The notes under the pieces are model-generated. The model was not told the DNA's origin, searched no databases, and saw only the letters and a program-made list of their open reading frames with translations. Of a stretch of DNA of 64,000 nt, positions 1 through 55,560 are shown one piece after another. The position numbers were made by a program, and so were the translations under genes. Each line of letters starts with the position of its first letter. Position 1 is the first letter of the stretch. Source of the DNA: Psammoneis japonica (Eukaryota); contig QPGO01000049.1 in assembly GCA_008632985.1 (NCBI GenBank), positions 186,001 through 250,000 of the forward strand, read 5' to 3'.

Positions 1-539
1 AATTGTTTGCCAACACAACCTGGCTCAACCTTGCCATTTTGCCTCTCTTTTCTTGCAAATCTCTCAATGTGAAGACATGGAAGAGTGCACCCCTCTGCTG
101 CACTGGCACAGCACCATGTGCTGCTGCCTGGCATTAGCAGCAGTTTCTCCAAGGCCCATGCCAGCTGCATGACAACCTCAACAATGCCATGCCAGTGCTC
201 CAAGATCTGCTTCCAGCAATGAGATTGATGGTTTCACAAAAACAGAGACTGCTCCACCCAAGCAAGCATTGTCACACCCCATGTTGCACAACAAGCTGGC
301 TGCAAACTCTAAAAAGATGCCAAGCAGTGCTGCCATCTTTCTGCCACTGGTTGGGCAGTGTGCAAATGCCATCTCTTGTCAAATCAGGGTTGCAAAGCCA
401 GCTAAGAAGCCATGTGACTCTCTGGGGCACCTTTGTTGTTGGTCACATTTTTGGCAGAGGGGGGGGGGGGGGGGGGGGGCACCACAGGGCTCAGGGCAAG
501 CACAGAGCCAAAATGATTAAACACATGTGAGACCACAAG

Positions 540-1700
540 TCCAGACACTTTGTGAGCCACACCATGATGCAAAAAAATGAGCAGAAGTCCAAGCAATTTG
601 CAACAGACAAGCCATGGTCACCTCACATTAGGCCAAGTGCATTTGCTGGATTCAGCAAAATGGCTCTGGGTCTGCCACCAGTGGAGCCAGTGAAAAAGCT
701 GCTCACCAGAAAAAGGCAAGAGTGGCATGGATGAACCAAAAATGAAATTGTGCAGTGTTGAGCTTCTTTCAGAGCAAGGCAAGACCATCAAAAAGAGTCT
801 CATGAGTGTGGTGTGTGCATTGCACATCACATCAGAGAGCCTCTTCTTGGCAGCCTTGCTGCAACAAAAAGCCTTTTCAGTGTGAGCTGCATTTTGACAC
901 ACAGAAGCTTGCCACAAGGAGAGTGCACCCTGTTGGCTGAGCAAATGGAATGATGTCATCACAACACCAGTGCAATGCCAGACAATGTGTGAGAGGACCA
1001 TCAAGAAGATGTGGCCTGTCTCATCTCTGCTGGGAAAGAAGGAGACCAGCAGTTTGTCACATGAACATTCCCACCTGTCACAGCAAAAAGCCCTGATGCT
1101 GAGACTGGTGCAACAAAAACAAAGATGAATCTTGTTTTTCATTGTGAAATCTTCACAACAGGAGTGGCATGACATCTTTTGACAACAACGACATCTCAAC
1201 AGCAAGATTGGTGCACCCAAGGAAGACCCTGCCATGTGTGCCAGTGCACTTTGAAGAGCTCTGTTTGCAACAAAGAAGCAGAGGACAAGGAGTGGGAACC
1301 ACACAAAACCTTGTGATGCTTTGAGGCTTTCCTCTGAGCAAAGCACAAAAGTGGTGCACAGATGTGGAGGAGATTCTCAACTTCATCTTTTGAGTCCCAC
1401 ATGCGCAACACATTTGCAGAGGTGTTTCAAACATCATGTGCTGGCATGGCACACTTCTGCCCACTGACAATGTTCAGAACATCTTGAAGAATCTGGGAAG
1501 CAGCATGGCATTTTGTTGGCCAGGCGGCAGCTGTGGTCAGGAAGCAGGAGGCAGAGAGCACAACTGCTGAGGAACAGCTTGCAACAACTGCCATGAGACC
1601 TGAGTGCAGAAGATGTTGAGAAAGTGCATGATGGCTGCTGAAAAAGAAAAAAAATGATCAGCAGCAAAAGTTTGCCAAGCTCTCAAAGAGATTTGTTGAG
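540..1700 (+). mobile_element. Possible degenerate non-LTR retrotransposon fragment (host of the nested Copia insertion)
   Basis: The 'EQKSKQFATDKPWSP' motif resembles, from memory, the region between endonuclease and RT in diatom LINE-like elements. Heavily frameshifted. Confidence 0.25.
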
Positions 1701-1784
1701 CTCTTAAAAAGACAAAAAAGGAAGAAACAACAGAAAAGGCAACATGGGAAAAAGAGCAACAAGCTGGATGCCACATCAACCAAC

Positions 1785-2128
1785 TGTTGGAGCAAGTTAG
1801 ATGAGGGTGTTAGAGAACCCGGAAATAGTTGAAGTCCATGGATGTTTTGGCTCCTGACGTGGCCGGTCTGATGACCATGCATTCTTTGTCATCGCACTGT
1901 CATCCCTGAAATGAAGTGTTCTCACTCTTTAGAGTGAATCATCTGGTGTGTCAACTGTTGTCATCGGTGATGGGAAGCATCTGTTAAAAAAACCAAATCC
2001 ATTTGGTGTGCAAAGTTGTGTTGAATGATCTTCCAGGCAAACCACACAAGCAGCCAGGATGTGTGCATCAAGAGTGGAGGAAGCTTCACAAGATTCCCTT
2101 TTGCCGCCATTAACATGTTGGTCCAACA
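1785..2128 (+). repeat. 5' LTR
   Basis: TGTTGGAGCAAG...GGTCCAACA; aligns to 9067-9410. Confidence 0.95.
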
Positions 2129-2143
2129 TTCACTCTAAAGAGT
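2128..2143 (+). promoter_or_regulatory. Primer-binding site complementary to the LTR (putative self-priming PBS)
   Basis: ATTCACTCTAAAGAGT is the exact reverse complement of LTR 1924-1939 (ACTCTTTAGAGTGAAT). No tRNA-type TGG PBS is present. Confidence 0.65.
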
Positions 2144-2214
2144 CACAAGCATGCAAGTGAGACAGCTTGCCATGCCAAGTCTACATTCTCTTGAAGAAAC
2201 AAGCAGCCTGCAAG

Positions 2215-5200
2215 ATGAGCAGCAGAGGAACTGGCAATCTGCACAAGAAGGGCCAAGACGGAAAGTGTGGCCAAGGCAATGGGAATGAGAACCCCAAGTC
2301 TTCCGGATCAAAGAAGAAGATGCACAGCAACAGGAGCTTTAACCCTGAAATGAAATTCCATCCATCAATGATGAACAGTGACTCTTGAAACACAACGTTG
2401 GAAGACATGAAGACCAAGATTGTGCATTGCATCCAGAAAGAGTGCAAACAAGGAAAGCACTTGGCATGATCACTAGAAGACATGAAGCACCAAGACTTTT
2501 TGGGTGAGGAACCAACCTCAAAGGTGTCCAACAAAGCAAAGGACTCACCAGAAGCAGAGCAAGAGAACAGACAGTTTGAATGCAAGCACAAGGCTGAACT
2601 CAGAGATCATTGCCACAAGACAAAACAGTTCGAGGAGAACAAGAACAAGGCATTTGCAATGATTCTTGATGACTGCTGCGTGAGACCAATGAGGCAGAGA
2701 GTGCAAGCAGATCTCACCTGCAGTGCAATCAGGGACAATCCCATTGAGCTGCTAAAGCTGATCCAAACCCTGACACACGACTCCATGATGGGTCGACACC
2801 CATTCCACACACTTGCGAAAGCACTCAAAAACCTGTTGGATTTAAACCAACAAGAACAAGAGCCGATCAACAACCACCTGTCACATTTTAAGAATCAACG
2901 TGATGCAACAAGCAAAGGATTGGGCGAAAACTGCTTGACAGTTTCATTGAAAACTCAAAGGAGCATGCCACAGCAGGAACATCAGAGAAAAAGGAAATGA
3001 AGCAGTCTGCATGTGAGACATGGGCTGCATTCCCATTCATTCCAAACAGCAATGATTGCCATTGCAAGATCCTCAAGAAGGGTCTGGTTAGAGACTGCAG
3101 CATGGGAAAGGACATGCATCCCAAGATGCTGGAGTCAGCCATGAATGCACCACTCAACCATTCAAAGGACAATGATCCGCGCAAGAGAAGCGCAAAGAAC
3201 TGCAATCACAGATGCAATGACAACAATGACAAGGACAAGAACAAGAACAAGAAGGACCAAAGTCACTTGCAAAAACAAAGCAAGTCAATTGCATGCCACT
3301 GCTGTGGGGTGGTGGACAATCATGAGTCCAACGAGTGCAAACTGAGAAACAAGATGCCATTTGATCAATGGTGGAAGAAAACTGGAAAGAAACCACAGCT
3401 GCCAGGGCAAAGTCATGCCCAATCAAGAACTGGAAAGAGCAGTTCAAGCAAAGACGACACAAGTGTCAAGTCCGTGCTCAGCATGACATCTGCTTGGTCG
3501 TGCAAGGGCCGAGCAAAAGCTTGGCATGGACTGCAACTTGGGAATGATGACCAAGGAATGAGCTTAAATCAGAACAACACAAACATTGAGCCAGAAGAGA
3601 TTGTCCTTGACAATGGTTCTGCCCTTGGCATGGCAGCAAGCCAGAGGTCAGTGCACAACGTGCGACTGGCAAGGATCAAGATTGATCTGTCCACCAACGC
3701 AGGAGTGGACACACTGGACAAAGACTGCACCATGCCAGGATGGGGTGATGTAAAACTGGGATCCAAGAATGTGATTGCCAACATCCTCAGTTTACGGGAT
3801 GCAAAACAGAAGTGTTGTGTTGCATGCGACAACAGAGCAGCAGATGAGTTCCGACTGCCAGACAGGAAAACAAACAAACAAGCCGTTAAGGCCAATGACT
3901 CAGGGCTGCACACATTTCAACCAAGCAAGGAGTCCTTTGAGAACGTCCAATGGCTGCAAGAAGAGGAGCGACATGCAAGTCTGAATGTGACAACCACGAG
4001 GAAGTTGAGGCAGAAGATGCCAAAACCCGGCAGTGCATCAGGGGCCATGATCCCCTCTGCTAAAGAAAATGCCAAGGGCCACACAAAACGCAAGATGTTG
4101 CAAGTGAAAGAGGCACTGCGATTCTGTCATGAAGCCGGCATCCCAAGCACACAGGATTGCAGACGTTCCTCATGTTCCAATCAGGTGAAGAACTTGACCA
4201 TCGCACCAGATGATGCTGATCAAATGGTGGCCACTTGGGGTCCACCAGAGGATGCGATTAAAGGAAAGACCAAGCGTGCTCATCATTCCCATGAGAGGAA
4301 CGTCGTGATTGCTTTGCCATCTGAATTTCATGAAAGGCAGAGCAATGGAATGACTCTGTGCATCAACATTGTGGAGGTTTGTGGAGTCAAGCTCCTGCAC
4401 TCCATCAACAAGACTGTTGAGCACAGAGCAAATGTGAAACTGAAGTCCAAGAAGCACGTGGACATTTGCAATGCACTGGACATGATGCCACGACAATGTG
4501 ACAAGGCACTCTTCAAGACAGATTTCATGGAATGCAATCCTGAGTTCAAGGAAATGTTGTCCGAGGTTGCAGACGGTGTGAGCATTGAACTCATTGCTGT
4601 CAATCCGAAAGACCATGTTCCCAAGGTGGAGCGCAGTGTCCAAACCATCAAGGAACAAACTTGCACCACGGTGCACCATGCACCGCACAAGGCAATGCCA
4701 AAGCTCATGTGTGAGCATGCGGCAATCAAGAATGCTGTGATGATGAACATGTGCCCACAAAAGGATGGCATTTTGGATGTCTGCAGTCCTCACACCATTG
4801 TGCAACAACAAAATCTTGACCATGCCAAACATTTTGAATTTACATTTGGAGAGTTTGTGCTCTCACACATTGAGAACCAACCCACCAATGCCATGGAGAT
4901 GTGTGGCGTTGACAGCATCCACCTGTGCCCATGGTTTGATGCTGACAAAGGGGGGCACTGCACCATGAATTTGCACACGGGCAAGCTTTTAAATCCCTGC
5001 AAGTGCACTGCAGTTCCACTGACCAGCACCCACATTCGGGTGGTCGAAAAGATGGCCTCTCGTCAAGGCATTGAAGAATTCAAGTTCACTGGTTGATGTG
5101 GTGACAATCTTTGTGACACCAATTGGACTGCAGGAGAGGAAGACAGCAACAGCGACAGTGACAGTGACAGCGACAATGACAGCAACAGCGACAGCAACAG

Positions 5201-7290
5201 CAACAACAACAGCAACAGCAACAGCAAAGATGACTCAGACAATGAACAAGAACAAGCTGATGAAACTTTAGCAGGAAATGAACACAGTCCCAATCAACAT
5301 CAAGAAGATGAAGAGAAAGAAGAATCCAATGAAATGGGAGACATGAAGAACAACCAGAACCCACTGAGATCAGAGGTTGAACAACAAGATTGGGACAAAG
5401 CCACATCACTGCATCAAAGGACAGCATGCCTGACAAAACAACACACAAGAAGAAAATTCTCTTTCCAGGAGTGGCAGCCACAGAACAAGAGGAACGCAAG
5501 CAAAGGAAACTCAAATGCTGCCATCATCTAAGAGCAAATGTCAATCCCAATCCTGAGGATGACATGGAATGCCACTGCAAGGTCAGACTTGTCACAGCAT
5601 TCTTTATGTGCAAGCACAATGACAGAGCAAGAGTGGGATGAGAGATCTCACTTGGACAACAGCACCTGTTGCACAAAGGCCTAAAGTCATTTGGCCAGAG
5701 AGGAAATGATGCCTCAGAAAAGGAAACAAAACAACTGCATGATCAAGTGTGTTTCCAACCAGTGTCAGTGAAAGACATGACTCCGCAAGAGAGAGCCAAG
5801 GCAATGGCAGCCTTGATGTTCCTGATGGAGAAGCGTGATGGATGCACAAAAGGGCGAATGGCATGCAACGGCAAACCATCATGAGAAATGCTAGACAAGG
5901 ACAAGTCAGCCAGCCCAACAGCATCACCAGAAGGAATTGTGATGACACCGCAGTGACAGATGTGGATGAAGGATGTGACATTGTGAGCACGGACATTCCA
6001 AATGCATTTGTGCAGACAGAAATTCTGGAGCCACAGAAAGGCAAAGACTGGATTGGGATGAAGATCACAGGTTTGCCAGTGGACATGCCAGCAAATGTTG
6101 ATCCCAACCTCTGTGGACTGCATGTGGTCCTAGAGAGAGGAAGGAGAGTCCTCTGCGCACAAGTGGCAAGAGCCATCTGCATCATGGTGGTCGCGGCTCC
6201 ACCATGGCACAAGAAGTTCCAAAAGGACTTGGAGAGGGTTGGGTTTGAGTTCAACCCATGTGACCCATGCATTGCCAACCACAATGGAAAGCAGCACACA
6301 GTGCAACCCCACATGGATGATTTGTCATCAAGTCACAGGAATCCCAAAGCAAATGACAAGTTTCTCAAGTGGTCAAACAGAGAGTGCGGGAGCCATGGCA
6401 AGGTCGTGGCAACAAGAGGAAAGAAACATGACTGCCTTGGCATGATCCTGAATTTTACCGACAAAGGAAAGCCAAGGGTGGACATGAGAAAGCAAACAGG
6501 ATCAATGGTTGACAGTTTCCTGGAAAAGATCAAGAGCACAGATTTCACAATGACACCTGCAGGGGAGAACCTGTTTGAGACAGGCGGCACAAGACTGACC
6601 AAAGAGAAAGCACAAACATTCCATGTGTGGGTTGCCAAAGGATCATTTGCATCCAAGAGAGGCCGCATGGACATGCACCCCACAATGTTGGCGCCATGTG
6701 CGCAAACAAGGGAACCCACAGATGAGGACTGTACAAAGTTAGTCCAATGTCTCAAGCATTTGAATCAAACAAGGAACGAAGTGGCAACACTGAGTGCCAA
6801 GGATCTCCGAGTGACAAAGTGGCACGTGGATGCATCATTTGCGGTGCATCCAGGTTTCAAGAGCCACACCGGAGCAGCAACAACAATGGGCAATGGGGCA
6901 ATGCAAGCCATGTCAAGAAGACAGAAGCTCAACACACGAAGCAGCACAGAAGCTGAACTGGTTGGAGTCAATGATGCAGTGACTGTGATCCCATGGACAT
7001 TTGTGGAACACCAAGGACATCCTGTCAACAAGAATGTGCCACACCAGGACAACAAGAGCGTGATCTTGTTGGAGACTGATGGTCATCAAAGTGCCGGCAA
7101 ATGGTCAAGGGGGGCACTCAACACAAGACATTTCTTTGTGTGCAACCAAGTCAAGAAGGGCAATCTGACCATTGAATGCTGTCCTGCAGATGCAATGATT
7201 TTGGGGATTTTATGACCAAGCCATTGCAAGGCGAGAAGTTTTGCAAATTTAAACAAGCCACAATGGGGTGCTGGAGATCCAACAGCAACA
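2215..7290 (+). pseudogene. Copia gag-pol polyprotein, frameshifted and with stops
   Basis: Zn-knuckle-like CHCCG..H..C, protease VLDNGS, integrase HVPKVERSVQTIKE, RT DIPNAFVQ/NPCDPC/HMDD, RNase H KWHVDASFAVH, SSTEAELVGV, QDNKS, DFMTKPLQG. Confidence 0.92.
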
Positions 7291-7679
7291 GGAGTGGGCT
7301 CCTGTTTTGTGATGTCAGACGAGAACTTTGACGTGCATGGGTGAAAGATCCCTGCAATCCAGAGAATGATGAACGTGCAATCTTCTCCCGGAGCAACACA
7401 GAGCAAGCAACACCAAGCACACAATTGAACACTGTCCCACAGATGCAATGATTTGGGATTTTATGACCAAGCCATTGCAAGGTGAGAAGTTTCACAAATT
7501 TAAACGAGCTGCAATGGGGTGCCAGAGACCCAACAGCAACAGGAGTGGGCTCCTGTTTTGTGACATCAGATGAGAACTCTGATGCACATGGGTGAAAGAT
7601 CCCTGTGACCCGGAGAATGACAAATGTGCAATCTTCTCCCAGAGCAACACAGTGTGAGCAACACCAAGCACACAATTGA
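7171..7679 (+). repeat. Tandem duplication (~253-bp unit) of the pol 3' end
   Basis: ATTGAATGCTGTCCTGCAGATG at 7171 and ATTGAACACTGTCCCACAGATG at 7424. The copies align over the whole unit. Confidence 0.92.
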
Positions 7680-7685
7680 GCAACC

Positions 7686-9054
7686 ATGGACGGCGATGAA
7701 GCTGGAGGTTTTGATGGAAATGTGGCAGCGGCCGAGGCTCACGCATTTGATGAACGCATGTGCTGTGAGCATGTTGCCTTCAACAAACACAACAAGGTGG
7801 CAGCAGCTGGCCCAAGAACTGTTTGCTTGAGATCATGAAGATGTTCAAGATGCCTGTCCGACACAAGGATTTGTTTGTTTGGAGAGGAGAGCTGGTTGTG
7901 AGCAAAAAACCCACAGATTGGCAGAATGGAACAAGACTGCAGCGTTTGAGCAGCATGCCAAGCAAGTGCAAAGAAGAGTGCAGAACCTGCAAGGTTTTTG
8001 GCACAGAAGGTTACATCCTGCCTTTGACCCAAACAGGAGAGGAGAACTTAACAGAGGAAGACTGCCATCACTGAGTCCTGATCTAGCAAGAGATGCACTG
8101 GATTGCACACAGCTTGCGGTGGACCTGGATTGCAGGCACAGGCTCAACTCTGATCACATGAGAGCGGTGTGGCAAGAGAGATGCTGTGCAAGGCTCGAAG
8201 CAATGGTGACCATGTTCAAAATGCACCAGACATGGACACCGCTGATGTGGGAACATGTGTCCACTGCAACCCCAATGATCTCTGTCCATGACAAAATGGA
8301 GACCATCACAGACAAGATGAGGTGGCCAAACATTGTGGCGCACACCCGTGAATCCCATTGGAAATTCCTGGCAAAGAGGTCAGAAACTCACAACAAGACA
8401 AGGCCGTCCTTTGCTCAGGGGCAACAGAACCCTGCAAAATTGGCCTTTGACAGGCTGGACATTGACCACATGGCAAAGGTGCCGTGGCTACAAGGTGTGC
8501 CGATGTGTGGCATGGATCGACTTGGGCAATGTGGCGGACTGATGTGTCCAGGCCACAACCACACTGCCGAGCATCCAGATTTTAGTGAGCTTGTCAGAGA
8601 CAAGAACGGAGTCATGTTTGATGCATTGAAACTGTCAATGTTCTTCAGAAGGACAATCGAATTTGTGTCCAATGTGCAGAAGCATCCCTGGGTTGTGCAC
8701 ATGGTGGATTTTCTCACATTGACTCCAAACACCATGCACCAGTGGATCTGAGATCAAATCAAACATTCAAATGACCGGAATGACACGCTGAGTGATGCAC
8801 AGCAAGAATTGATCAGACAAGATTTTACAATGACATTCGTCAACCATGTGAAAGGTGTTGCCAATGAATTTGATGACATGCGGTGCTGCTCAAGCAACAA
8901 ACAAGACACGTGGCATTTTGCCGAAGGGGTGAACATTGAGAGAGAACCTCATGATGTTCTCTACAATGTGTGTGCAAGGTGGAACATTTTCCCTCGAGGA
9001 GATGTTCCAACCTGTGTTGCAGCCCAAGAAGCATTGGACAAACAATCAGAGTGA
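7686..9054 (+). pseudogene. Extra sense ORF of unknown function between pol and the 3' LTR
   Basis: ORFs 7879-8751 and 8809-9054 are in the same frame, separated by a single TGA. An ATG lies at 7686 in another frame. Confidence 0.6.
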
Positions 9055-9066
9055 GTGGCAGGAGTG

Positions 9067-9410
9067 TGTCGGAGCAAGTTAGACGAGGGCATCAGAGAAC
9101 CTGGAAACAGTTGAAGTCTGTGGACATTTGGCTCCTGATGTGGCCTGTCTGATGATGATGTGTTCTTTGTCATTGCACTGTCATCCCCAAAATGAAGTGT
9201 TCTCACTCTTTAGAGTGAATCATCTGGTGTGTCAACCATTGTCATCGGCACTGGGTGGCATCTGTTGGGGCCAAATGCATTTGGTGCACGAAGCTGTTGA
9301 ACAATCTTCGAGGCAAACCACAGCCACACAAGCAGCCAGGACGTGCACATTGAGAGCAGAGGAAGCTTTGTGAGATTCCCTTTTGCCGACATTAACACGT
9401 TGGTTCAACA
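9067..9410 (+). repeat. 3' LTR
   Basis: TGTCGGAGCAAG...GGTTCAACA followed by TSD CCAAC. Confidence 0.95.
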
Positions 9411-10964
9411 CCAACAAGCTTGTCTTTGAAAAGCAAGGGTGAGCCAGATGCTTTGTGAGTTTGCTCTGGATGCAGTCAGGCTGAATCACCAAGTTTTACA
9501 GAGTCAAAAAAGTGAGCTCATTTAACAATTTCTTGCTGCATGCTGACTTTGGCAATGAGGACCTCAAGCAGATGGGTCCCATCATTGAGCCAGGCAAATC
9601 ATTCTGCTGCTGCTGTCCCATCACAGAGCAGAGCTCCATGGACTCATTGGTGATGTGTCCCTTGACAACATTGCTGCCATCTCAAAGGAAAGCTCTCAAA
9701 ACAAAAACCCAAACAATGAGTCTTTGCATGTGTTCATTGAAAAAAACACTGAAGACAGCAGGGTCATCAATTGCAAAAAAGAGTGGGAAGAGCATGGGCT
9801 GGGCACACAGAAAGATTTCTGTCCCCCCCCCCCCCAAAAAAAAAAGCTGCTCCAAGTCAACCAAACTCAAAATCTTGTCTTGCTCATGTGCTGACAAACA
9901 AAGCAAGCAGAGCTGTTTTCACATCTTGTTCAATGCACCACTTGGCTCTTCATTGAGCAAATTCCCCCACCTGAAACTCCACCATGCAGCCAGCCAGTTT
10001 GAACAAAAAGGATGCACCCACTTGACACAGAATTCAAAAAAAATCATTGCATTCCAGAGACAACAAAGAGGTGCAAAGGCATTGTGACAAATCAACTGGA
10101 GTGCAAAAAATGACGAACATGTTTTCCAGCCCCATGATGATGGCAGCATGGTGGAAATGCCCATCAAGGACATGCAAGAATGGACAAAAAGTCAAAAGAA
10201 GGATCCTGAAGAGTTGTCATGTGAAGCTGCAGCCACCAATTGGTTGGCACCTTCACAAAAGGAGTGGGGGTGGTGGGTGACAACTTTCCTCAAACAGGTG
10301 TTGATGCTCAAGCCACTGCTGTCATCCCAACACCTGACCAGTCACACATTGGGTCTGTCCAACTTCACCTGTTGAACATGTCAAACCCCAAAAAGGCAGA
10401 ACCGCATGTCCTCCACTCCAAGTGCTTGCCTCCCTCATGTCAAAATCCAACTTTTTGAGAAATGGGTTGAAGGTGTCAAGGCTGGCTGGGCTGGTCTGCA
10501 AAGTGAGTTGCATCCTGAAGGTGAGGAATTAGGTGATCCCAAAGTTGTCCCCAAAGGACTCGTCACCGTTTCAATTCTGATGACATCGAGTGGCACCGAC
10601 CTTGTAGGCTCCTCTAATTTTGAATCTTCTCTACTTAGTGAAATGATTGGCTTTGGTTCCTTTGCTGTTAGAAATGCACTTTGAACACCAAAAATCACAT
10701 TGGCTGATTCATCAAACAATACAAGTACATCATGTTTATTATCCCTCTAATTCTCTCATGCCATACCCAGATCTCATCGATGTCGACAAGATGTGCACAG
10801 ATTCCTTTGTTCCCACATCATCTCCGTCACAAACATCGGTTGTAGCCCTACTCGTACAAATCAAAGTCTCGCCAGCACTGATAATCGTGATAAAATAATT
10901 GCAACATCACCACTACTAGTAACTCTTTGGTGGTCTTGGGGTTCTCACTGCCGATCGCTCTAGA

Positions 10965-12296
10965 CTATCTCCGCCTCGACAGCCATGATCGAGGCCTTGA
11001 TGATATTCTTTTCCAGAGCCCGGGTCTCTTTGTTGACTCTAGATCATCAAATAAACGCCTTTTATCCGGAGTCGAAAACAATGGACTGCGATAAGTATCT
11101 TGAGCACGCAGATTACTCTCCATGCGTTTCACCTCTAGTTGGTGGAGTGAACGTTCCTCCTCCAGTATTCTCTCAAAATTATCTTTTTCAATCTTTTGCA
11201 TGGACGCAAACTTTACCTGTTCCTGCTGCAGCTGCTCCTGGGCTCGGGTCGCTTTCAGCCGCAATTCTTCGTTTTCTTCTTGAGACTCACGCAATCGTTC
11301 CGCAAGTGCAACTTCATCAGCTTGCTCTTCCTTTTTCTCTTTTGCGAGAAGGCAAAGCGACTTGTAGTCATCTCTCAGTTCGTCAAGCTCGCCTTGCAGC
11401 TTCCTGTTTTCCACCAACGCGTCATCATACTTTCGCTCAACCAGCAAAAGCTTCTGACGAACATCCTTCTCGCGTTTTTCCGCCGCTTTTACCGCGCCCT
11501 TTGCAATTTCAATAGATTCCAATTGGTCCTCGTCAACAAAGGATTCTGTCACGTTTTGATATTTCGCAAGCAGTCCTTCCTTTTCTTCGACAGCCTCGGC
11601 GAGCTGCTTTTCGAGCTTCTTTCGTGCCTTTTGTTCTAGGTTGATGGCCTTTTGTGCCTCGTCTTGTTTCGAGTCGAGTGTCTTTTGCAATTTCTCGAGT
11701 TCATCCTGTGCTTGTTCAAGCTTCTCGTCCAAATGAAGCATTTCATTCTTTAGGGCACCCCGCTTTTCTTTTTCCTCCAGCAATTGCTCTTGTTGTCGAC
11801 TTTGCTTCTTTTCATAGTCCAACTGATTATCTTTGATTTGTTGCTTCAATGCTTCAATCGAACTCTTGTCAATTTTTGCTTGCTCTTTGAGTTCGGACTT
11901 GATTTGATCCAATTCCGTTTCAATCTCCTTGATTTGTTGACTCGCTTTTTCTTGTGTCTGCTTTTCCTTGCTGGCTAGTCGTTTCACCACGTCCTGAAGA
12001 ATCGTGGTTTTCGAGTCGGCCAATTGAAACTTTTCGGAAACTTCCTTGAGTTCGGCGACCTTTTCTTTCAAGGTTGCTTGAAGCAGTGCGGCACGATTTT
12101 GGTACCGACGCATCTCATAGTCTTCCTCGGTAGTCACAATAACAACATCTTCTTTTTCTTGTGGTGTAACGGACAAACGTGTCGAGAAAAAATCAATCGG
12201 AGAATTCAACGATTTCGCAATCAGTTGAGGAGAGAAGGCTGATACAAAACGATTGAGAATCAGCGAAACAAGGAATATCAAATATTTTCGACGCAT
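10965..12296 (-). CDS. Predicted plastid-targeted coiled-coil protein
   Basis: 443-aa ORF. Signal peptide followed by VSAFSP (ASAFAP-like bipartite motif). Long E/K/Q-rich helical body. Confidence 0.85.
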   Translation of the reverse strand: MRRKYLIFLVSLILNRFVSAFSPQLIAKSLNSPIDFFSTRLSVTPQEKEDVVIVTTEEDYEMRRYQNRAALLQATLKEKVAELKEVSEKFQLADSKTTILQDVVKRLASKEKQTQEKASQQIKEIETELDQIKSELKEQAKIDKSSIEALKQQIKDNQLDYEKKQSRQQEQLLEEKEKRGALKNEMLHLDEKLEQAQDELEKLQKTLDSKQDEAQKAINLEQKARKKLEKQLAEAVEEKEGLLAKYQNVTESFVDEDQLESIEIAKGAVKAAEKREKDVRQKLLLVERKYDDALVENRKLQGELDELRDDYKSLCLLAKEKKEEQADEVALAERLRESQEENEELRLKATRAQEQLQQEQVKFASMQKIEKDNFERILEEERSLHQLEVKRMESNLRAQDTYRSPLFSTPDKRRLFDDLESTKRPGLWKRISSRPRSWLSRRR

Positions 12297-12876
12297 GCTG
12301 AGGTCAGTCTTCTTTGTTTCCCTTGCTGTGGCTTCTTGTCTTCTTGTTCAGCGCCAAGATGCACGTGTATGGTTTCATGACACAACACACTTTTCGCTTG
12401 TGAAGATGTTGTGATGTGGGATGTGGGATGCGGGATGCGATGCGAGATGCGATGATCCATGATGCCCATCAGGAGAGAGATGAGCGCGCGCAACGCACGC
12501 TACAGTACCTATGAGTATTATGCAACGCACGCCTCTGGGGGGTGCGACGCACGGATTTGAGTAAGATACTACGAGCCAGCCAGCTATTGTTCAAAAAGCA
12601 TTTATGATACATATTTATTTCTTTATCAATGCATTAATAAAAATAATTACCTGTCTCACGATTCAAATTATTTCCTTATTCCTCATAGCTATAGCTCTAT
12701 ATTATTCGTTGGATCTTGTTTGAAGATCGCAGAAGCGCTCTTCGCCAAGAACGCCCAACCGACCAGCGATCCTCTCACCTCTCACAAAATCGCCAAACAG
12801 GGTCCAACAAAACCAAACACACGAGTGTGAAAGGAAATCAGCATTGACAACAAGGAGTATTACTCTCAATCATCTC

Positions 12877-15559: not shown

Positions 15560-18500
15560 TACACACTGCTGAGGTAGAAAGGAAGATCTTGTCAGGTCAT
15601 GAGTTCCTTCCACGTTGCGTCTCTCATCTCTGCGTTGTCATTTGAGTGCTGTTTGAAAGAGCTGAGGTTGCACTGGCAGCCCCGTGATTTGCCACTGTGT
15701 TCTTTTGAAACAAGAAGTAGAACATGTGCCAGAGCCCATGTCAGCCTCCAATTTTTTGGTCACTGTGCACACAGAGCCTCTTTTAGCTGCAGTCTTCACT
15801 CACCTGATCACATGACACACTCAACCAAATGTTCTTCAGTGAACTCCACTGTCTTGATGACTCATTTGCCCTGCAAGATCCTGGCATCATTTTGACCATT
15901 GTGGCCAGATTGTCAATGACATTGTCACTCCCACGGTTTTGCTGAAGAAACAGCCAATTCTTTGACAATGAGCACTGTTGTCTCACACCCATGCTGTGTT
16001 CAAAGTGACTTGCAACATAACTCCAAAAAACAAGTGTAACTTGATGCCACAGGGGCATTTTGAAAATGCAACATGCTGTCTCCTTGAAGTCTGTCAAGAC
16101 TCAATTCTTGTGGTCTTTGTGATCACCAGGTGGCACGTCATTGTTCCAGCAGCAGAAAGGGTGATTTCACACCTCAATTGGGGGATGATTTTTTGCTTCA
16201 TTCTTCTTTGCAATTGTTCTTGCAACACCTTGGTCTGAATGCCATGACCTGTGTTTTTGTGTGCTGTCTTGCAGGATGATGCTCAGCAGACAAAAGAAGA
16301 AAGAAGGCAAAAGGGTCAAACACACCACTGAAAGCGGGATCCATGAAACTCCCATTGCCATGCCACCCCCTGTGCAATCTGCAGTGAGTGTGTGTGCACA
16401 TGATGTGAATGATCACACAGTGTCATCATGCCAAAAATGTGATGCACTCCCACTCAGTGATTTCAAACAACTCATGAATTTGTGCACACCTTTGCGATGC
16501 CTTGGCGGCACCAACACAAATGGTGTTCCAAATCCATGAATTTTTGCTGCTTTGCACCCATGAGGAACACTTCAAAATGCATCAATTTGAACAAAACCTG
16601 GGAGCAGCTTGCTTGTCAAGCTTGAGACAATGACATGCTCAAAGACATTTTTGCATGATGCGTTCCAGCTCTAGATGGGAACTCGCAGCACCAGGGTGGG
16701 ACATGGCACAAAAATCATGTGGGATTCCACAGGGAAAAAGGTGTGAAATGGGATTCTTCAAAACTGAGAATTGCTCAAGGTGGACCATCCTGCAACATCA
16801 TTTTGACATGTCAGAAAAATGTTGCAGGACATTTAACATGCTTCAAAACCCCTTCACAGAAGAGTTTTGCAAATCACAAAAGCAGCCATTTTCCCTCATC
16901 TTTCAACTGTTTTTCTGTTTTTTTTTTTGTGCAATTGTGACATCATGCTGTGAGAAAATCCATTCATTGAGTCAACACATTTAACAGCAATTTTGCAGCA
17001 GTTAGACTTGGAAATGCTTTCAATGGAGTTCAACACTGGAAATGAAAAATGTGGAACAAAGTTGCAACTGAACATGACACGAAGAGTGCATCGCACACTG
17101 GGGTGCCAAAGGAAATGCCAAACAGCTCTGTTTTGACAAGACAGATGAAATCAAGTGTGGTGGATCTGATGTGGTGTGGCCATTGTTGGGACTTGCAGAC
17201 CAGAACATGGCAAAAATTCCAGTGCCTCCTGCTCCACCTTCCTGCATGCCCTGGCTTTTCCATCTGGCACCCTCCTTCCTTCACAGCTGATTTTGCCTGG
17301 CATTGCCTCTTTGATGATCACTTTGGCAGCTCCCATCATTCCATCTCTCCATCTCAACAGGCCATTCAAAAGCTCAGCTGCAACCTGGTCTGCCATCTCT
17401 CTGTGCATGCCCTCCACTTTGCCTCCTCTCTCCCTGCTCCCTGAGATGACCGGCAATTTCCACTGCCTGCAGAAATGTGCACAGTTTTTGTGCTGTGACA
17501 GGGCAACAAAGCAAAGCACCATGTCTCCATCCATGTTTGGCTTGCAACCACAACAGGAATCATGCAGCAGATGACTCAGCTCCACCGCCATGTTCCAGCA
17601 TGTTGGGATCATCTGCAGTTGATGTGTTGGGTCCAGCCTCATTGTCACAACTTGGAGACAAGCTCAAGAAAGACAAGGTGCTTCCATTGAGCAAGAACTG
17701 CTCTTTTTTGTTGCGTCAACCACTGCTGAACAACCACAATCAACACTGGAAACCACAGAGGTGCAAGTTTGCATTGACCATGATGCCCACACAATCATTT
17801 GAGGCTGCAGCATCATGGATTTTATCCTCATGATTGTGCGCATGTTTAAAGAATTGATCATGTGCACCACAACAACTCATTGTTCAAGTTGCATTTGTGC
17901 TTGTTGAATCTCATGCACAGCCAACAGACCATTGTCCACACCACAAAAAGGCATTGACAACATGTGGGCACAACAAAGGCAGCAGCCAATCAAAGCGTTG
18001 TCACATCAAAAGCGTGTCCTTTAGGCACAATGCCAAAATGTGACATCATGCAACCTTCTGGCACTTGAAACACAGCACTGTGACAGCACAACAAACATGA
18101 CAGAGTTCAGACAACTGAGAAAGTTAAATTCACACTTTTGATGTTGCACACAACATGCAACAACAAGGTTTTCATGCCTGCAAGATGCATCAATTTGTTG
18201 GTGTCACACAATCTTCTTCTGCTGGATCTTTTGTTCCATTTTGAGGTCCACCCACTTCAACATCTTCTTCTGCAGTGCCACAAAGAATGTCCTTTGTTGA
18301 CATTGCCATCACTTGTGTCACTTGCGCCAACAGCACGCACTTTCTGAGCATGCATCACACAGTGAATGTCATTGTCATCATCACCAAATGATGCAAGCAA
18401 CTCTTTTGTGCCAAGAGGAGGTGCAGTCTTGCAACTGGATGGGGCAGGAGGAGCGCAATTTTCCAGGTCATTTTTCCAGATCTTGGTGGCTAAAGCCACC

Positions 18501-21500
18501 CAGTCTGTTCTTCAACACTCACATCACAGAGGCTGCATGGGAAGTTGGCCAGGTTGTGGGCTGGAACAGTTTGCTGCTGCAGTGCAGCCCTTGACTCCTG
18601 GGCCAATTGGAAGCCAGGGAGATGAGGGTGGTCCACAAAAACAGTCTTGAGCTCAGCAGCACCAGTGCTGCAATTAAAACAATGAGCTTCAAATGTGTTT
18701 TTCTTGCCAGTTTTTGTTCCAACACAATGTGGCACATGCACGCATTGGAGAAGCAGTGCACCTGACCATCAGGTGGTGTGTGTCACTGTGCCTGTTTCAT
18801 GCAGACCTCAGTGGCTAAAGCCACCTGGTCCACTCTTCCACAGCCATGTCACAGAGACTGTGCAGGAAGTTGGCCAGGGTGTTGCTTGTGACATTTCTTG
18901 TGCACAAGAACATTGAAGCAGGGAGAAGTGGTTTTCCGCTTGGAGGGAACTGCTTTTTGGACACCATCCAGCAGGACAAGCTTGGGGCAAAGGCAGAAAT
19001 TCACCTCAGCAGCACATGCAACAAGAGAACCACACATGTTGCTGAGTTAAGTTTGTGTTGGTGCTGAACCGCTTTCTTGTGAGCCTCAACTTTCGATTCA
19101 GAAAAATGCAAGCAGGAGAGAATTAAGAATTGGGGACAAGTCTTCAGGATTTCCAGCAAGACTTCCAGTGCTTCCTTGGCTTTGTCTTGCAGCTTTTTGA
19201 TGGAACAGAACTCTGCGTGGACTAAATTGTCAGTTGGGGAAGAAATCTTCTGGGGGACAAGCCGGACTGGCAATTTTGCATGACAGTTGTTTGGCACAAT
19301 GTCCTGGAGACATTTGACAACCACATCAGCAGAACAGCATTTGGGGAGATCCTCAGAAATTTGAGCTGCAGGGACCAGGTCAGTGGCAGTCTCATCCCAT
19401 TCATGGCAGTGCACACAAATGGAATCATCCTCAAGAGTTTTGGTCACAAAGGGGATGTCTTCAATGTCAGAGAGAGTGATGGTGGCATGGAGGGGATGAG
19501 TGATGACATGCATTGGCTTGCAATGATGAGTGCCACCAATGCGATGAATGCAAAATGATGAGAGCAAGTTAAACCAGCAGTCCAATGATCCACCACATTG
19601 ATTTTGGGAATATCTTTCGCTGTTGGAGAGTGTGTTTGTCTTGTTGACTGGAGTGTCTTGGGTGGCCTTTTGTTGTTGAAGGGTCTGTAAAACCATCGTG
19701 TGGCCAGTGGCAAGCACAGTGGAAGTGTTGGGGTCATTGAAGGTGCACTCACAAAATGGAGAGTGATTTTGGCAGTGTCATCACCTTTGGATGTTCTGCT
19801 TCCAGCAGAGGTTGGAGCAGGAGGAAACTTGCCAATGGCACTGGGAGGATCAGGAGGAGAAGTGCCGGGAAGCCTGGCCTGAGGTGATGGAGAGGTTGTC
19901 ATGGTGACAAAAACGCAGTGCAAAAAACATGCAGAATTCCATGCAGAACTCGTTGATGTGAGGCTGCACAGAAAAGTGGCACGCATGTGACAGAAGCACA
20001 GTGGAACATCAACATGGCATTGGCAGGGTCCCAGCCAGCTCTGACATCTGAAGTTTCTTTCCTGGTGCCATCATATTTTTTAGCAAGACAAACCACCACC
20101 ACATGTGACTGAGTTGGGTCTGCATCATGCACTTGGAAACTGACAAAGCTGTTTGTGCATGTGACCTCTCTTGAGAATGTCATGACTGAATGAGCATTTG
20201 AGGTGGCTTGCCAGGCACACTTGTCATCCTGTGAAAATTTCACACCACAGGCCACAGACAACACTGCAGAATGGGAAAAATGATTTGGGGAAATTGATGA
20301 AAGGGCTGTTGACCAGCTTGAGTCTGTCCATCAAAGGACAGATGTCCAGTGCTTGCCATTTGCTTGACTGCACCAATTGCTGATTCCCCACCAGCTGACA
20401 AGGTTGTGCTTTGTTGTTGTTGCAACAACAACAACAAAAAGACAGCCAAAAGGAAGAAGCCAGTTCCCACCACACAGGCACACCTCCCTGCTCATCCTCA
20501 GTTTGCCATGACAGATCAAGGAGGAGGAGCAGTGCCACCTGCTGCTGGGCTGCAGCTGGACAACTGCCCCAGCAGCCACAGCAACAGCACCAGCTTCTGC
20601 CACAGCACAGCCAGAGGGATGGCAACCACCAGCTCAGCAGCGGGCACAACAGGCACCCCCAGCAGCTGCACCACCCCACCATCATGACAGCAGGCCTTTG
20701 GACAAGCAGCACCAGGTGCACAGATTGTGCTGTGCCAAGGCCCCCTTTTGGGACAGTGCACCACCATGACCTGCATGGCATGCACAGTGTCCTTAAAGAA
20801 ATGCATCCCATGCACCACAGGAGCCAAACTCCATGGTCTGTGATGCCAGCAGTGCTGATGCTGGCCAAGGAACTCTCCACACCCACTGGGCATCCCAGCA
20901 CCATGCAGGGCCACTGTGCCACATTGCACATCACCCCATCTGCTTGGGTGTGGGGCACCCTCACCTGCCCTTTTGGTGGCAATGCCCACACATTTGTGGG
21001 TGATGCGCACAATGGACAAACGTCTCACCAGCAGGCATCATTGCCCAACAATGCATGCCATGGCATTGTCAGCGCCACACGTGGGTTCCATCACCCAGCT
21101 GGTTGATCAGCGCTTGGCAGCAGATGCAAATTTGGAAATGGTCAGGTTGTTTGACCCACCATGCCGGACCTCACAACAGTGCTGCTCACCGCAGAAGCCC
21201 ATCAGTTTGCAGTGGGGCTCAATGTCCCAGTCACTGACACACACACTGCAAGACAGGAGGACCATCAGTGGAAAGATCATGACCACCAGAACTGTGCCCC
21301 GGGCAGTGCAGCTGCGTGAAATTGTGGAGCCAGTTTGATTCCATGAGCCCCTTCTTGGAGACACAATTGCACAAATGGTTTTTACCCTGTGGTGGCAGGA
21401 TGCATTTGAATGTAAAAATGAAAAAATCAAACNNNNNNNNNNNNNNNNNNNNNNNNNNNNNNNNNNNNNNNNNNNNNNNNNNNNNNNNNNNNNNNNNNNN

Positions 21501-22870
21501 NNNNNNNNNNNNNNNNNNNNNNNNNNNNNNNNNNNNNNNNNNNNNNNNNNNNNNNNNNNNNNNNNNNNNNNNNNNNNNNNNNNNNNNNNNNNNNNNNNNN
21601 NNNNNNNNNNNNNNNNNNNNNNNNTTGCAAGTTCATCATGTGAGAAGCTGAGTTGGAGTGAGTGCACCCTGTGAGACCTGGTTGTGCAGCATCTCACATC
21701 AGCACCACCAGTCTGCAAGACTCAGTTGTCTGCAAATGACTGGGTTCATTTCCAAGAATGCACAGGTTTCCCAGCCCTGGCCCCAGATCTCACAGCCACT
21801 TTAAAGGACATTGACAAACAAAAGGGTTGGGGGGCCAGGATTCCTGTTGCACTGTTTTTGAGTTGCCACAATTTGCCTCCCAGTCAGATGCCTGCTCTGA
21901 GGTCTCAGGCTTCACCACAGACCCACCATTGGCAGCAGAGTTGTGTGCACCAGCACCAGTGCATGCTCCAGAAATGGGAGCTGCAGGTGGCAGAGTGTGC
22001 AAGGCAGGCCATGTGTCATTGCCATTGCAAAAGTGTCAGCAGCTCAACCACATCATCAAATCTGTGAAGGCTTGCTGCCACCACAACATCACCTTGCCAA
22101 TGAGCCCATGCCACAAGGCCAACATGACCTTGTGCTTGGCATGCCACACCAAGGGCATGTGAGGTGAAAATTGTGGATTGGTGGCAAGCCATGCACCTCA
22201 CACTGTGGAGAAGAAGGTCTCACTCTGTGCTTGATGTGAGCCCAATTGCAAGACAGAGTGGGATGCAAGCAGGGGCAGCTGCCATGTGCACCCTGCCCTG
22301 AGACACCAATGTCCCTTCCACATCCTCCTGCCAACACACCCTCTGGGCCCTTGATCACCAATGAGCGCCACTGGCTCAACCTGTCAGCACTTCAGGCTTC
22401 ACAGGCTGCCACAGAGAAACTGTGCAAGATTGCAGAAAGTGACATTGATGACCTCCACAAAAGGTGCTGACTCAACTGCACTGTTCTGCCATTGTTGGGG
22501 CTGTGGCAGCTTCACAAACTGCCACTGCAGAGGACAACACAATCTGGCCTGACAGCTGGCCCATCAGCCAGGCAGCTGTGTTGCACCAGCCATGATGCAG
22601 GTGCCCCTTGGAGATCCTCTCAACCTGGAGACCTTGTGCTTGTCACCCCACCACCCCAAGCACTGCAGCTCAGCTGTGCACTTGAACAGCTCATCACACA
22701 AACAGTGCTTTCCCAAGGTGCCTGCTCTCTTGTTCTGAACAAAGAAGTCCCCTTGTGCCAAGGCTTTTCTGCCCCTGCCACACTCCCACCCACAAAGTTC
22801 GTTGTTGGTGGCCTGCGCCTTTGGTCCTCACCAAAAGTGGGCCTGGGAGCTCCATAAATGGACCTCCACC
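15560..22870. other. TpA/CpG-depleted hypermutated repeat zone 2 (unclassified TE remnants)
   Basis: Same dinucleotide signature as zone 1, with many short Tyr-poor ORFs on both strands. Confidence 0.8.
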
Positions 22871-52018: not shown

Positions 52019-52329
52019 GGTTGCTTGCTTCTTGGTTGTTGGTTTGTGGAACTTGTGAGGTATGAGGTGGTACAGGTCTTGGGTCTTCGCAGAATTCTGG
52101 GATTATGGGGTCTGGGGGTACCGGGTGGTAGGTCTGGGGTCGCATCCACTTTACAGTACTTTGGCTGCATTTACTTAGAGCCCCCCCACGAAATTCAACC
52201 TTTACTTATGCACCTGTGACCCCNNNNNNNNCCCCGCCAGTTACAAAAAATCCGTAGAAGTGACAGGTCGTCGCGCGCCACATTTCCCCCCCTTTTTCTG
52301 GCACGCTGTGAACGACCCGCATCGTTGTT

Positions 52330-55300: not shown

Positions 55301-55560
55301 TGCATCAATGCAATGATTGACTTGCCATTTCTCAGTGCCAACAACCCAATTTTCCTTCTTAACATCCTCCAGAGGATTGACTTGTGAAGAAGTGGTGCCA
55401 TCAGCATCTTTGACTTTTAAGCTGCCGGGTTCTCCGGCGCTGTTTTCTGGCGTGAAAAGCAAGTCGCTTGCCGTCGCTGGGCTTGTCAGACAGATCACAA
55501 CAGGCCCAACAAGAGACATGTGGTTGACCGACGCATGCCATTGCTGCTTCCAGTCACTGC
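52330..55560. other. TpA/CpG-depleted hypermutated zone 4
   Basis: Same signature; contains an internal duplication and a pseudogene. Confidence 0.85.
52610..53695. repeat. Diverged direct duplication (~52610-53040 vs ~53325-53695)
   Basis: Shared blocks GATCACTCCAT, GCCAAAGTGGGCT, CCAACCAAGTGTCT, CCAGGCACTTCCACCTG. Confidence 0.8.

Follow-up and report, generated by a model that had tools for sequence, protein, structure and literature searches.

Near-erasure of TpA and loss of tyrosine codons in a dead Copia-type LTR retrotransposon and the surrounding repeats of a diatom-like stramenopile

Introduction

In repeat-induced point mutation (RIP), C is changed to T at CpA, which raises TpA and A+T content. 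In retroviruses and retroelements, APOBEC3 enzymes leave one-strand G>A changes by acting, before integration, on the cytosines of minus-strand cDNA. RIP is found in Neurospora and other ascomycetes (PMC7296669). The process closest to the one considered here comes from Bigelowiella natans, where, according to a 2026 preprint, integrated NCLDV and virophage DNA undergoes TpA>TpG/CpA hypermutation, observed de novo in mutation-accumulation lines (Mettrop et al., 10.64898/2026.01.13.699255). As described there, the changes are nearly always A>G or T>C, every one of them at TpA, and are confined to foreign or mobile DNA, in which they form clustered windows poor in TpA and rich in TpG/CpA; RT domains are enriched among the TpA-poor genes, and an ADAT2-like deaminase is proposed; activity on DNA has been shown for a few ADAT2 enzymes (10.64898/2026.01.13.699255). 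Natural TadA and ADAT enzymes act on tRNA, with native TadA recognising U(-1)A(0)C(+1)G(+2) (PMC10586758), and the TadA-derived DNA adenine base editors are engineered (PMC10586758, PMC12296453). The B. natans preprint was the only literature found on such a process in diatoms or elsewhere, and no mention of one was found in two papers on diatom transposable elements.

The locus described here lies in a window of 64 kb, the whole stretch of DNA analysed. It has in common with B. natans the change of TpA to TpG/CpA, the mobile nature of the DNA that is hit and the sparing of host genes (here around four zones). It differs in that the host is a diatom-like stramenopile rather than a rhizarian and the DNA hit consists of LTR retrotransposons and entire blocks of repeats, in near-saturated TpA loss (o/e 0.03–0.09, against 0.45 in the B. 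natans NCLDV region), in the CpG loss that accompanies it and in the kind of evidence, the de novo rate having been measured there and the process here being read from sequence scars.

Structure of the element

Positions 1785–9410 (plus strand, as for all features of the element) are recognisable from their sequence as a dead 7.6-kb LTR retrotransposon of Ty1/Copia type, of which the part in question (2215–7290) is the coding portion. The element is flanked by the 5-base target-site duplication CCAAC (1780–1784 and 9411–9415) and bounded by 344-bp LTRs at 1785–2128, with TG...CA ends (TGTTGG...CAACA), and at 9067–9410. A purine-rich tract lies immediately before the 3′ LTR, and inspection of the sequence following the 5′ LTR revealed no site complementary to a tRNA.

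A gag-like region (2416–3438), at the start of which the relatives' tblastn matches begin, includes a CCHC zinc knuckle at 3294–3338 (CHCCG...H....C); zf-CCHC is present in 4 of 14 full-length relatives. Protease and integrase occupy 3438–5096, with LDNGSA at 3606, the integrase core at 4221–5093 and an in-frame TGA at 5094. A search of PDB sequences with a 14-relative profile matched a single, unrelated protein, and that weakly (E 0.0077); the integrase was instead identified by fold: the structure predicted for 4221–5093 is a retroviral-type integrase core with a C-terminal domain (pLDDT 85.8), for which Foldseek returned retroviral integrases (E 5e-8 to 2e-6). Pfam rve had no match among the relatives. 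An acidic, Ser/Asp/Asn-rich low-complexity linker follows in the same frame (5097–5531, with relatives aligning up to 5390), and then reverse transcriptase and RNase H (5645–7290; frames 2, 1 and 0, with TGA at 5882 and 7213, and 0 Tyr). Integrase thus stands upstream of RT (5645–7268), the order expected of Ty1/Copia.

The window ORFs are assigned to a predicted Copia-type RT by homology to relatives, without a direct profile match, Pfam giving 0 families on them at E 0.01 and also 0 at E 10. phmmer with ORF 5839–7215 found 8957 relatives (best E 1.8e-120); RVT_2 of Pfam was matched by all 14 full-length relatives (best 1.4e-19), and one relative is a UniRef entry from the diatom Grammatophora named Ty1/copia-type RT, with 3.4% Tyr. 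Elements of this kind would escape profile-based annotation, as does this pol, in which Pfam finds nothing. Downstream lie a tandem duplication of the pol 3′ end (7201–7682; 2 x 231–251 bp, copies 87% alike) and an internal region (7683–9066) with a 306-codon ORF (7831–8751) that has no family match. tblastn and blastn found no further copies of this Copia family in the 64-kb window, and a comparison with the other genomes surveyed turned up no look-alike.

Dinucleotide composition of the window

In zone 1 (1–10500), which contains the element and its older flanks, TpA and CpG are nearly erased (o/e ranges 0.03–0.09 and 0.03–0.30) and TpG/CpA doubled (o/e ~1.7–2.0), and three further mutated zones, with limits that like those of zone 1 were drawn after the data were seen, lie at 15600–22800 (zone 2, with a like signature), 42750–46750 (zone 3) and 52400–55300 (zone 4). 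The four zones (24.6 kb) hold 4.6 TA and 10.8 CG per kb, compared with 35.6 and 62.4 outside; the gain in TG+CA (75.8 per kb) is near the 82.6 per kb lost from TA and CG. Gene islands outside the zones have a TA o/e of 0.4–0.8 and a CG o/e of ~1.

A genome-wide TpA and CpG bias without targeting, in which purifying selection alone keeps TA in genes, draws some credit from the mild under-representation of TA everywhere (o/e 0.4–0.8 outside the zones). We consider it very improbable, since in the gene islands TA persists at intergenic and synonymous positions and the zone borders are sharp, within ~250 bp (the right border of zone 1 being at 10500); moreover, the element is saturated though its LTRs show only 8/290 non-context differences, so that the local rate must have been many-fold above background.

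The element and its flanks (1–1784 and 9411–10500) are about equally erased for TA (o/e 0.09, against 0.05 and 0.03, respectively) and differ for CG (0.30, against 0.03 in each flank); TpA erasure is faster than CpG decay. The gradual CG>TG/CA loss, which has left a CG o/e of 0.03 in the older flanks and of 0.30 in the younger element, is in common with methylated-CpG decay in silenced transposons, but such decay explains the CpG half only and cannot yield Tyr>Cys/His changes or TpA loss. No consistent third-base pattern was found for CpG loss (ratios 0.10–0.25). In a test for processivity on the order of TG and CA, same-strand runs were no more frequent than expected in the saturated zones (same-neighbour pairs 656 of 1359, expectation 671.7, z -0.87).

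Inside a host gene, a 10-kb array (25.8–35.8 kb) of 12 copies of an 873-bp unit, 99–100% identical, has a TA o/e of ~0.6 and a CG o/e of ~1.15; this near-identical array being untouched, repetition alone is not the trigger, with the caveat that its copies could be of very recent origin or have been kept uniform by conversion. The normal TA and CG of these copies contrast with the duplication trigger of RIP. What the locus has in common with RIP are heritable, local, saturating transitions on both strands of transposons, the destruction of coding capacity and a sharp-bordered dinucleotide scar; the chemistry, however, is opposite, A:T>G:C changes here removing TpA in zones with a GC content of 0.42–0.55.

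Timing of the changes

The two LTRs of a retrotransposon are identical at integration, both being made from one template. Here the pair differs at 53 of 338 aligned positions, 46 of the 53 being transitions, and the 290 gap-free bases show 12 TG/CA pairs, 7 of CG against TG, 2 of TA against CA, 3 other transitions and 5 transversions. As the LTRs started identical yet differ chiefly at TG/CA/CG sites, the changes came after insertion. The duplicated pol 3′ end repeats this pattern, its differences falling mostly at TG/CA/CG sites (29 differing positions, including 8 CA/TG pairs, 7 of CG against TG or CA, 4 other transitions and 2 transversions); ancestral TA and CG are reconstructed from protein comparisons and from pairs of LTRs or duplicates rather than read from an unmutated family copy. 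In paralogous contigs, 851 variant places comprise 692 transitions and 159 transversions.

If the transcript had been hyperedited by an ADAR-like A>I activity before reverse transcription, the element would have been inserted already mutated. ADAR prefers G as the 3′ neighbour, the reverse of the pattern here, in which TAG is spared. Editing of retroelement RNAs is known, and the preference for a 5′ U fits (10.64898/2026.01.13.699255); nevertheless, the LTRs, from one template, differ in TG/CA/CG contexts, both strands are hit (TG and CA), and erasure in the flanks outside the element is no weaker. For most of the changes the LTR pair refutes RNA hyperediting, which we find scarcely credible. 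The locus shares with APOBEC3 the lethal, deaminase-driven mutagenesis of retroelements in a dinucleotide context (the deaminase here being presumed), and differs in that an A:T pair is changed, after integration, on both strands and with flanking DNA included.

Discordant LTRs could also arise if the true DNA had TA and CG and heavy base modification made the base-caller or assembler write TG/CA, a palindromic step misread per strand giving TG or CA at random. Against this, contigs from a sequencing run (X1, possibly the source data of the assembly) carry exactly the window letters over pieces of 373–574 bases at a word depth of ~60–80x, and show no TG/CA mixture at the many sites that they span; relatives from Logan, ENA and JGI have a like Tyr>Cys/His pattern, and the preprint text reports a like signature de novo in GATK-called B. 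natans lines (10.64898/2026.01.13.699255). Such an artefact therefore appears highly unlikely.

Sequence context and proposed mechanism

Surviving TAs in the zones lie in YTAR in 77 of 113 cases (38/53, 18/27, 14/23 and 7/10 in zones 1–4), compared with 156 of 1403 outside the zones (Fisher P 8e-41) and 2232 of 12994 (17%) in 79 loci of relatives (P 2e-32). With other Copia families and host DNA as the baseline, TA survival was 0.43 in YTAR, 0.059 in RTAR, 0.057 in YTAY and 0.013 in RTAY, for which a model of independent strands predicted 0.008. These values fit a strand-wise target, 5′-TAY-3′, that would be preferred ~6-fold over TAR, a preference and not an absolute rule. The Tyr columns that took the CA path all follow a purine (6 of 6), and none of 5 pyrimidine-preceded columns took it (Fisher P 0.031); R..Y flanks were not enriched at TG/CA-discordant positions of the paired LTRs and duplicates (6/20, against 19/79 at concordant sites). 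The 79 loci, from a metagenome scan with the low-Tyr relative P0048, served solely as an intact baseline; none is TA-erased (TA o/e 0.42–0.82), so the TAY rule has no replicate outside this window, and a metagenome scan with a window ORF gave 16 pattern matches, none confirmed. The words 'trinucleotide', 'flanking' and 'context' are absent from the main text of the B. natans preprint; the third-base rule is seen here.

We propose that two context-specific transition processes rewrote the inserted element together with the surrounding repeat-rich DNA. The first would be a fast A:T>G:C change at TpA, with 5′-TAY-3′ on either strand as its target (equivalent to 5′-RTA-3′ for T>C), turning TA into TG or CA; the second, a C:G>T:A change at CpG, would run more slowly and correspond to the ordinary decay of methylated CpG. 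Every in-frame Tyr codon would then be a preferred target, becoming Cys (TGY) or, after a purine, His (CAY). The sequence evidence makes us confident of which changes occurred and in which contexts, that they followed insertion, and that neighbouring genes were spared. The first process may be the conversion of A to inosine, read as G, by a TadA/ADAT-like DNA deaminase guided to the silent chromatin of transposons and serving as a heritable defence of the genome, a reading to which we give slightly less than even odds (about 0.45). The A preceded by U or T is in common with TadA/ADAT2, a resemblance of footprint alone, that seen here being T(-1)A(0)Y(+1).

The same transposon-directed DNA process might instead act on thymine, the T of 5′-RTA-3′ being modified or oxidised (to 5-hydroxymethyl- or 5-formyluracil, by an enzyme of TET/JBP type) and pairing with G to give T>C. 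5-Formyluracil does mispair with G, and TA is its own reverse complement, so that A>G at TAY and T>C at RTA are indistinguishable in all of the counts. We regard thymine chemistry as unlikely, since a T before and a pyrimidine after the A resemble the U-A-C recognition of TadA (PMC10586758) and the B. natans authors favour adenine deamination (10.64898/2026.01.13.699255), although neither is a test.

Returning to adenine deamination, we suggest only tentatively that diatoms possess a chromatin-guided, TadA-like DNA adenine deaminase with T-A-pyrimidine specificity that inactivates transposons for good through removal of TAY and so of all tyrosine codons, shared with Rhizaria as an old SAR genome defence and representing a natural DNA adenine editor. 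If so, diatoms, which are major marine primary producers, would silence transposons permanently by a mutator whose chemistry is the opposite of fungal RIP; TAY on either strand provides a concrete, testable enzyme footprint, and a natural DNA-acting adenine deaminase, if real, would be of interest to the base-editing field.

Tyrosine loss and coding capacity

A first-pass annotation, made from the letters alone, had reported that two ORFs contain no Tyr, and this was confirmed for 2904–5096 (730 codons stop-to-stop, 699 from the first Met) and 5839–7215 (458 codons, 457 from Met); ORFs 2470–3000 and 5097–5531 also have 0 Tyr. Along the inferred pol reading path (3438–5390, 5645–5946, 5947–7212 and 7213–7268; 1191 codons) there is 0 Tyr against ~39 expected at the relatives' median of 3.3% (P ~4e-18). 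Among ORFs of 100 codons or more, 66 of 78 in the zones lack Tyr, compared with 16 of 92 outside, and a Tyr-less ORF could serve as a one-line annotation flag for mutated DNA.

Conserved columns were defined by at least 60% agreement among at least 15 relatives, using 122 intact relatives. None of the 15 conserved Tyr columns is kept (now 7 Cys, 5 His, 1 Gln, 1 Trp and 1 Phe), compared with 223 of 346 conserved columns of all residues, 11 of 24 for Arg (with 5 Gln, 3 Cys and 1 stop) and 5 of 13 for Ile. The annotation had attributed such changes to TpA mutation of Tyr codons to TGY or CAY, which agrees with the 12 columns that are now Cys or His, and had named shared Cys/His residues in intact relatives as the finding that would speak against it; the intact relatives carry Tyr. 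The five motifs that it quoted were all found, and their reading as former Tyr is solid for NPCDPC, HDCLGM and WHKKF, in which intact relatives have Tyr at the altered position in 92/108, 90/115 and 83/107 cases, respectively, but merely plausible for KWHVDAS (n=108; W 42, Y 37, F 17, H 6) and PHQDNKS (n=97; Y 43, H 21, F 12).

The conserved columns hold 123 mismatches, of which a single TG/CA>TA step would reverse 30 and a single TG/CA>CG step 22, although such steps make up only 139 of 833 possible nonsynonymous neighbours. Changes have reached 17 of 105 columns conserved at 90% or more, including the first catalytic Asp of integrase (Asn at 4365), supporting the contention that missense wrecked the protein. 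TpA mutation did not do so alone, CpG decay contributing about as much (CG>TG/CA accounts for 22 of the 52 mismatches that a single step explains, e.g. Arg>Cys/Gln, and Asp>Asn after C).

Since the Tyr codon is TAY, Tyr is wiped out, and TAA and TAG fall in the spared context; the TAY rule explains Tyr as the vanishing amino acid while these stops survive. The suggestion that loss of TAA and TAG accounts for the dense spurious ORFs therefore holds only weakly, TAR being largely spared: TAA+TAG fall from 37.0 to 7.6 per kb, but the rise of TGA from 38.6 to 50.3 partly offsets this, so that the drop over all stops is limited to 23%, and ORFs of 100 codons or more increase modestly from 2.57 to 3.29 per kb. 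The first-pass interpretation is thus partly supported, right in its core and corrected for the CpG share, for the TAY preference with its effect on stops, and for two motifs. At 6202 and 6694, CTA became CCA by the disfavoured path, each time replacing a well-conserved Leu with Pro. Six low-Tyr relatives, five of them of known source, from contigs of Logan, ENA and JGI, each have Cys or His at 8 to 12 of 13 conserved Tyr columns.

Loss of tyrosine from the retrotransposon proteins

As the first-pass annotation had claimed, the two ORFs of the element (2904–5096 and 5839–7215) contain no Tyr, and none occurs in the 1191-codon pol path, where a Tyr content equal to the median of the relatives (3.3%) would give about 39. 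Relatives were placed on the element by tblastn, with 122 used from the 150 listed and the 28 with no more than 2.5% Tyr (9 below 1.5%, 19 between 1.5% and 2.5%) excluded, which biases the references towards Tyr-rich proteins; columns were taken at a cut-off of at least 60% agreement among at least 15 relatives. Against these 122 relatives the window retained 223 of 346 conserved columns and 0 of 15 Tyr columns, which had become 7 Cys, 5 His, 1 Gln, 1 Trp and 1 Phe, and a MAFFT alignment of 40 relatives likewise gave 0 of 12 (7 Cys, 4 His and 1 Gln). The tyrosine loss is real. Five motifs had been quoted as normally carrying Tyr; this held for three, with Tyr in 78–85% of relatives, and is no more than plausible for KWHVDAS and PHQDNKS, where the questioned columns are aromatic and variable and His is natural in some intact relatives. 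The reading of these changes as recoding, for which the proposed check was whether intact relatives share the Cys and His residues, is supported by a Grammatophora (diatom) relative with 3.4% Tyr, named Ty1/copia-type RT in UniRef, so that this check falls in its favour.

The element itself (1785–9410) is flanked by a 5-bp target-site duplication, CCAAC, and bounded by 344-bp LTRs with TG...CA ends (1785–2128 and 9067–9410). A gag-like region with a CCHC knuckle (3294–3338) is followed by protease, an integrase core (4221–5093; fold pLDDT 85.8, matching retroviral integrases) and, after an acidic linker, RT and RNase H (5645–7290). Pfam searches with its own ORFs gave no family match at thresholds up to E 10; phmmer returned 8957 relatives of an element ORF (best E 1.8e-120), and the position of integrase ahead of RT, together with RVT_2 in 14/14 full-length relatives, identifies the element as Ty1/Copia-type. 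The reading path contains frame changes and three in-frame stops, every one TGA. Between the pol end and the 3' LTR (7683–9066, 1.4 kb) lies a 306-codon ORF (7831–8751) with no Pfam match; it may be an additional gene of the element, part of a nested fragment, or simply a frame left open by chance where stops are scarce.

A sequence artefact is a highly improbable cause of the TA loss, since contigs built from a public sequencing run (X1, possibly the source of the assembly itself) agree letter for letter with the window in stretches of 373–574 bases at approximately 60–80x word depth, and independent low-Tyr relatives carry Cys or His at conserved Tyr columns (8 to 12 each of 13 columns in six such relatives, five of them from Logan, ENA and JGI contigs). 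In hundreds of paralogous X1 contigs, most departures from the window are transitions (692 of the 851 variant places classified by kind). At 1989–2040 in the LTR, one X1 contig has 34 other letters and four TA steps where the LTRs have TG/CA, and this LTR-joining contig suggests that less-mutated family copies exist in the genome.

Dinucleotide signature of the mutated zones

Four mutated zones were delimited (1–10500, which holds the element, 15600–22800, 42750–46750 and 52400–55300), their limits being set from a 250-bp profile after the profile had been inspected. TA fell to 4.6 per kb in the zones vs 35.6 outside and CG to 10.8 vs 62.4, while TG+CA gained 75.8 per kb, near the combined TA and CG loss of 82.6. 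TA was about equally erased in the element (o/e 0.09) and its flanks (0.05 and 0.03), whereas CG o/e was 0.30 in the element vs 0.03 in the DNA surrounding the insertion; TpA erasure therefore saturates fast and CpG decay is slower, and the differing speeds argue for separate mechanisms.

At the zone edges 46001–46750, 52251–52500 and 55251–55500, TA o/e was already 0.1–0.2 with CG still at 0.4–0.8, a pattern consistent with a longer reach, or a higher rate, of TpA erasure compared with CpG loss. Runs of N at 21433–21624 (192 bases, inside the second zone) and 52224–52231 (8 bases, just left of the fourth) place assembly gaps within or adjoining mutated repeat DNA.

Sequence context of TpA erasure

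Most TAs surviving in the zones (77 of 113) were YTAR (Y, pyrimidine; R, purine), as against 156 of 1403 outside the zones and 2232 of 12994 in 79 intact loci, related elements from metagenomes that were used as the baseline (Fisher P 8e-41 and 2e-32, respectively); zone by zone the shares were 38/53, 18/27, 14/23 and 7/10. Survival relative to the intact baseline was 0.43 for YTAR, 0.059 for RTAR, 0.057 for YTAY and 0.013 for RTAY, and a model of independent strands (survival 0.66 for TAR and 0.089 for TAY; rate ratio approximately 5.8) predicted 0.008 for RTAY. Transitions leave the purine or pyrimidine class of a base unchanged, so later changes in neighbouring bases cannot blur these context classes. 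On both strands, then, the target is 5'-TAY-3'; as the base after TA, T or C is preferred to G, and G to A.

Because TAY is the tyrosine codon, Tyr vanishes, beyond the effect on TA-containing codons generally. A further prediction of the TAY rule is that His, the product of the CA path, should arise only where a purine precedes the codon. Each of the 6 Tyr columns that had taken the CA path was preceded by a purine, and none of the 5 pyrimidine-preceded columns had done so (Fisher P 0.031). The preference is not absolute: two Leu>Pro changes (CTA>CCA) arose via the disfavoured path. At TG/CA-discordant sites in repeat pairs, the flank classes were not enriched.

Timing of the changes and CpG damage

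Of 338 aligned LTR positions, 53 differ between the two copies, 46 by transitions; over 290 gap-free bases there were 12 TG/CA pairs, 7 CG vs TG and 2 TA vs CA, plus 3 further transitions and 5 transversions, and an internal tandem duplication of the element showed the same difference pattern. The changes in the element postdate its insertion, and for the bulk of them RNA editing before reverse transcription is excluded by these differences. Among the conserved-column mismatches, 52 of 123 were reversed by a single step (30 to TA and 22 to CG), although steps back to TA or CG make up only 139 of the 833 possible nonsynonymous neighbours. CpG decay is responsible for much of the lethal protein damage, including Arg>Cys/Gln, Val>Met in the RT xVDD box and Asp>Asn after C, the last affecting the first catalytic Asp of the integrase (4365).

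Candidate mechanism and trigger

The process is a post-insertion, DNA-level, two-strand and TAY-preferring A:T>G:C change confined to repeat zones, accompanied by CpG decay. The agent would be enzymatic adenine deamination; thymine-side chemistry at RTA might act instead and yields identical counts. With adenine as the deaminated base, the footprint is T(-1)A(0)Y(+1), opposed to the 3' G preference of ADARs. It resembles the U-A-C-G recognised by TadA, as described for that enzyme (PMC10586758).

In our literature search TpA>TpG/CpA hypermutation was described only in a 2026 preprint on Bigelowiella natans (10.64898/2026.01.13.699255), in the main text of which the words 'trinucleotide', 'flanking' and 'context' are absent; nothing was found for diatoms, and term look-up in two diatom transposon papers (PMC2806351; 10.1101/2025.10.24.684338) returned no such hypermutation. 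What the window adds is the TAY rule and its connection with the tyrosine codon, the difference in speed between TpA erasure and CpG decay, and a tandem array that has been left untouched.

This array (25777–35820; 12 copies of an 873-bp unit at 99–100% identity) lies within a giant adhesin-like host gene on the minus strand (24231–38783; at least 27 Big_9/cadherin-like units), along all of which TA and CG are normal (o/e approximately 0.6 and 1.15 in the array). Repetition per se is not the trigger, with the reservation that the array may be of very recent origin or kept uniform by conversion; subject to the same reservation, the process differs from RIP in trigger as well as in chemistry, and the evidence points to recognition of the transposon or of silent chromatin. 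Three spacings in the array are 872 bp and coincide with the breaks between the long ORFs at 27.6, 30.1 and 31.1 kb; these may reflect true frameshifts or faults in the assembly of the array.

The window is eukaryotic, its gene islands encoding Rad21-like, CLC channel, ankyrin, thioredoxin and fucosyltransferase-like proteins; among named relatives, the CLC gene has its best matches in diatom proteins (Mayamaea, Mediolabrus, Thalassiosira and Epithemia, approximately 33–40% identity), and on this basis the host is described as diatom-like. In the island beside the first zone, 11251–12000 has a TA o/e of 0.18–0.25 with CG at 0.8–1.4, TG+CA not raised and a strong AT skew (-0.36), which looks like the composition of a 460-codon ORF (10965–12347, minus strand) rather than erasure.

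Stop codons and open reading frames

Removal of TAA and TAG had been proposed to explain the dense ORFs of the zones, and this was borne out in part. TAA+TAG fell from 37.0 per kb in the intact loci (both strands) to 7.6 in the zones, though lying in the spared context, and ORFs of at least 100 codons rose from 2.57 to 3.29 per kb; however, TGA rose from 38.6 to 50.3 per kb, so that all stops together were down by only 23%. In the zones 66 of 78 ORFs of such length (100 codons or more) lacked Tyr vs 16 of 92 outside, six-frame Tyr was 0.08% vs 2.13%, and absence of Tyr is a good flag for the mutated zones.
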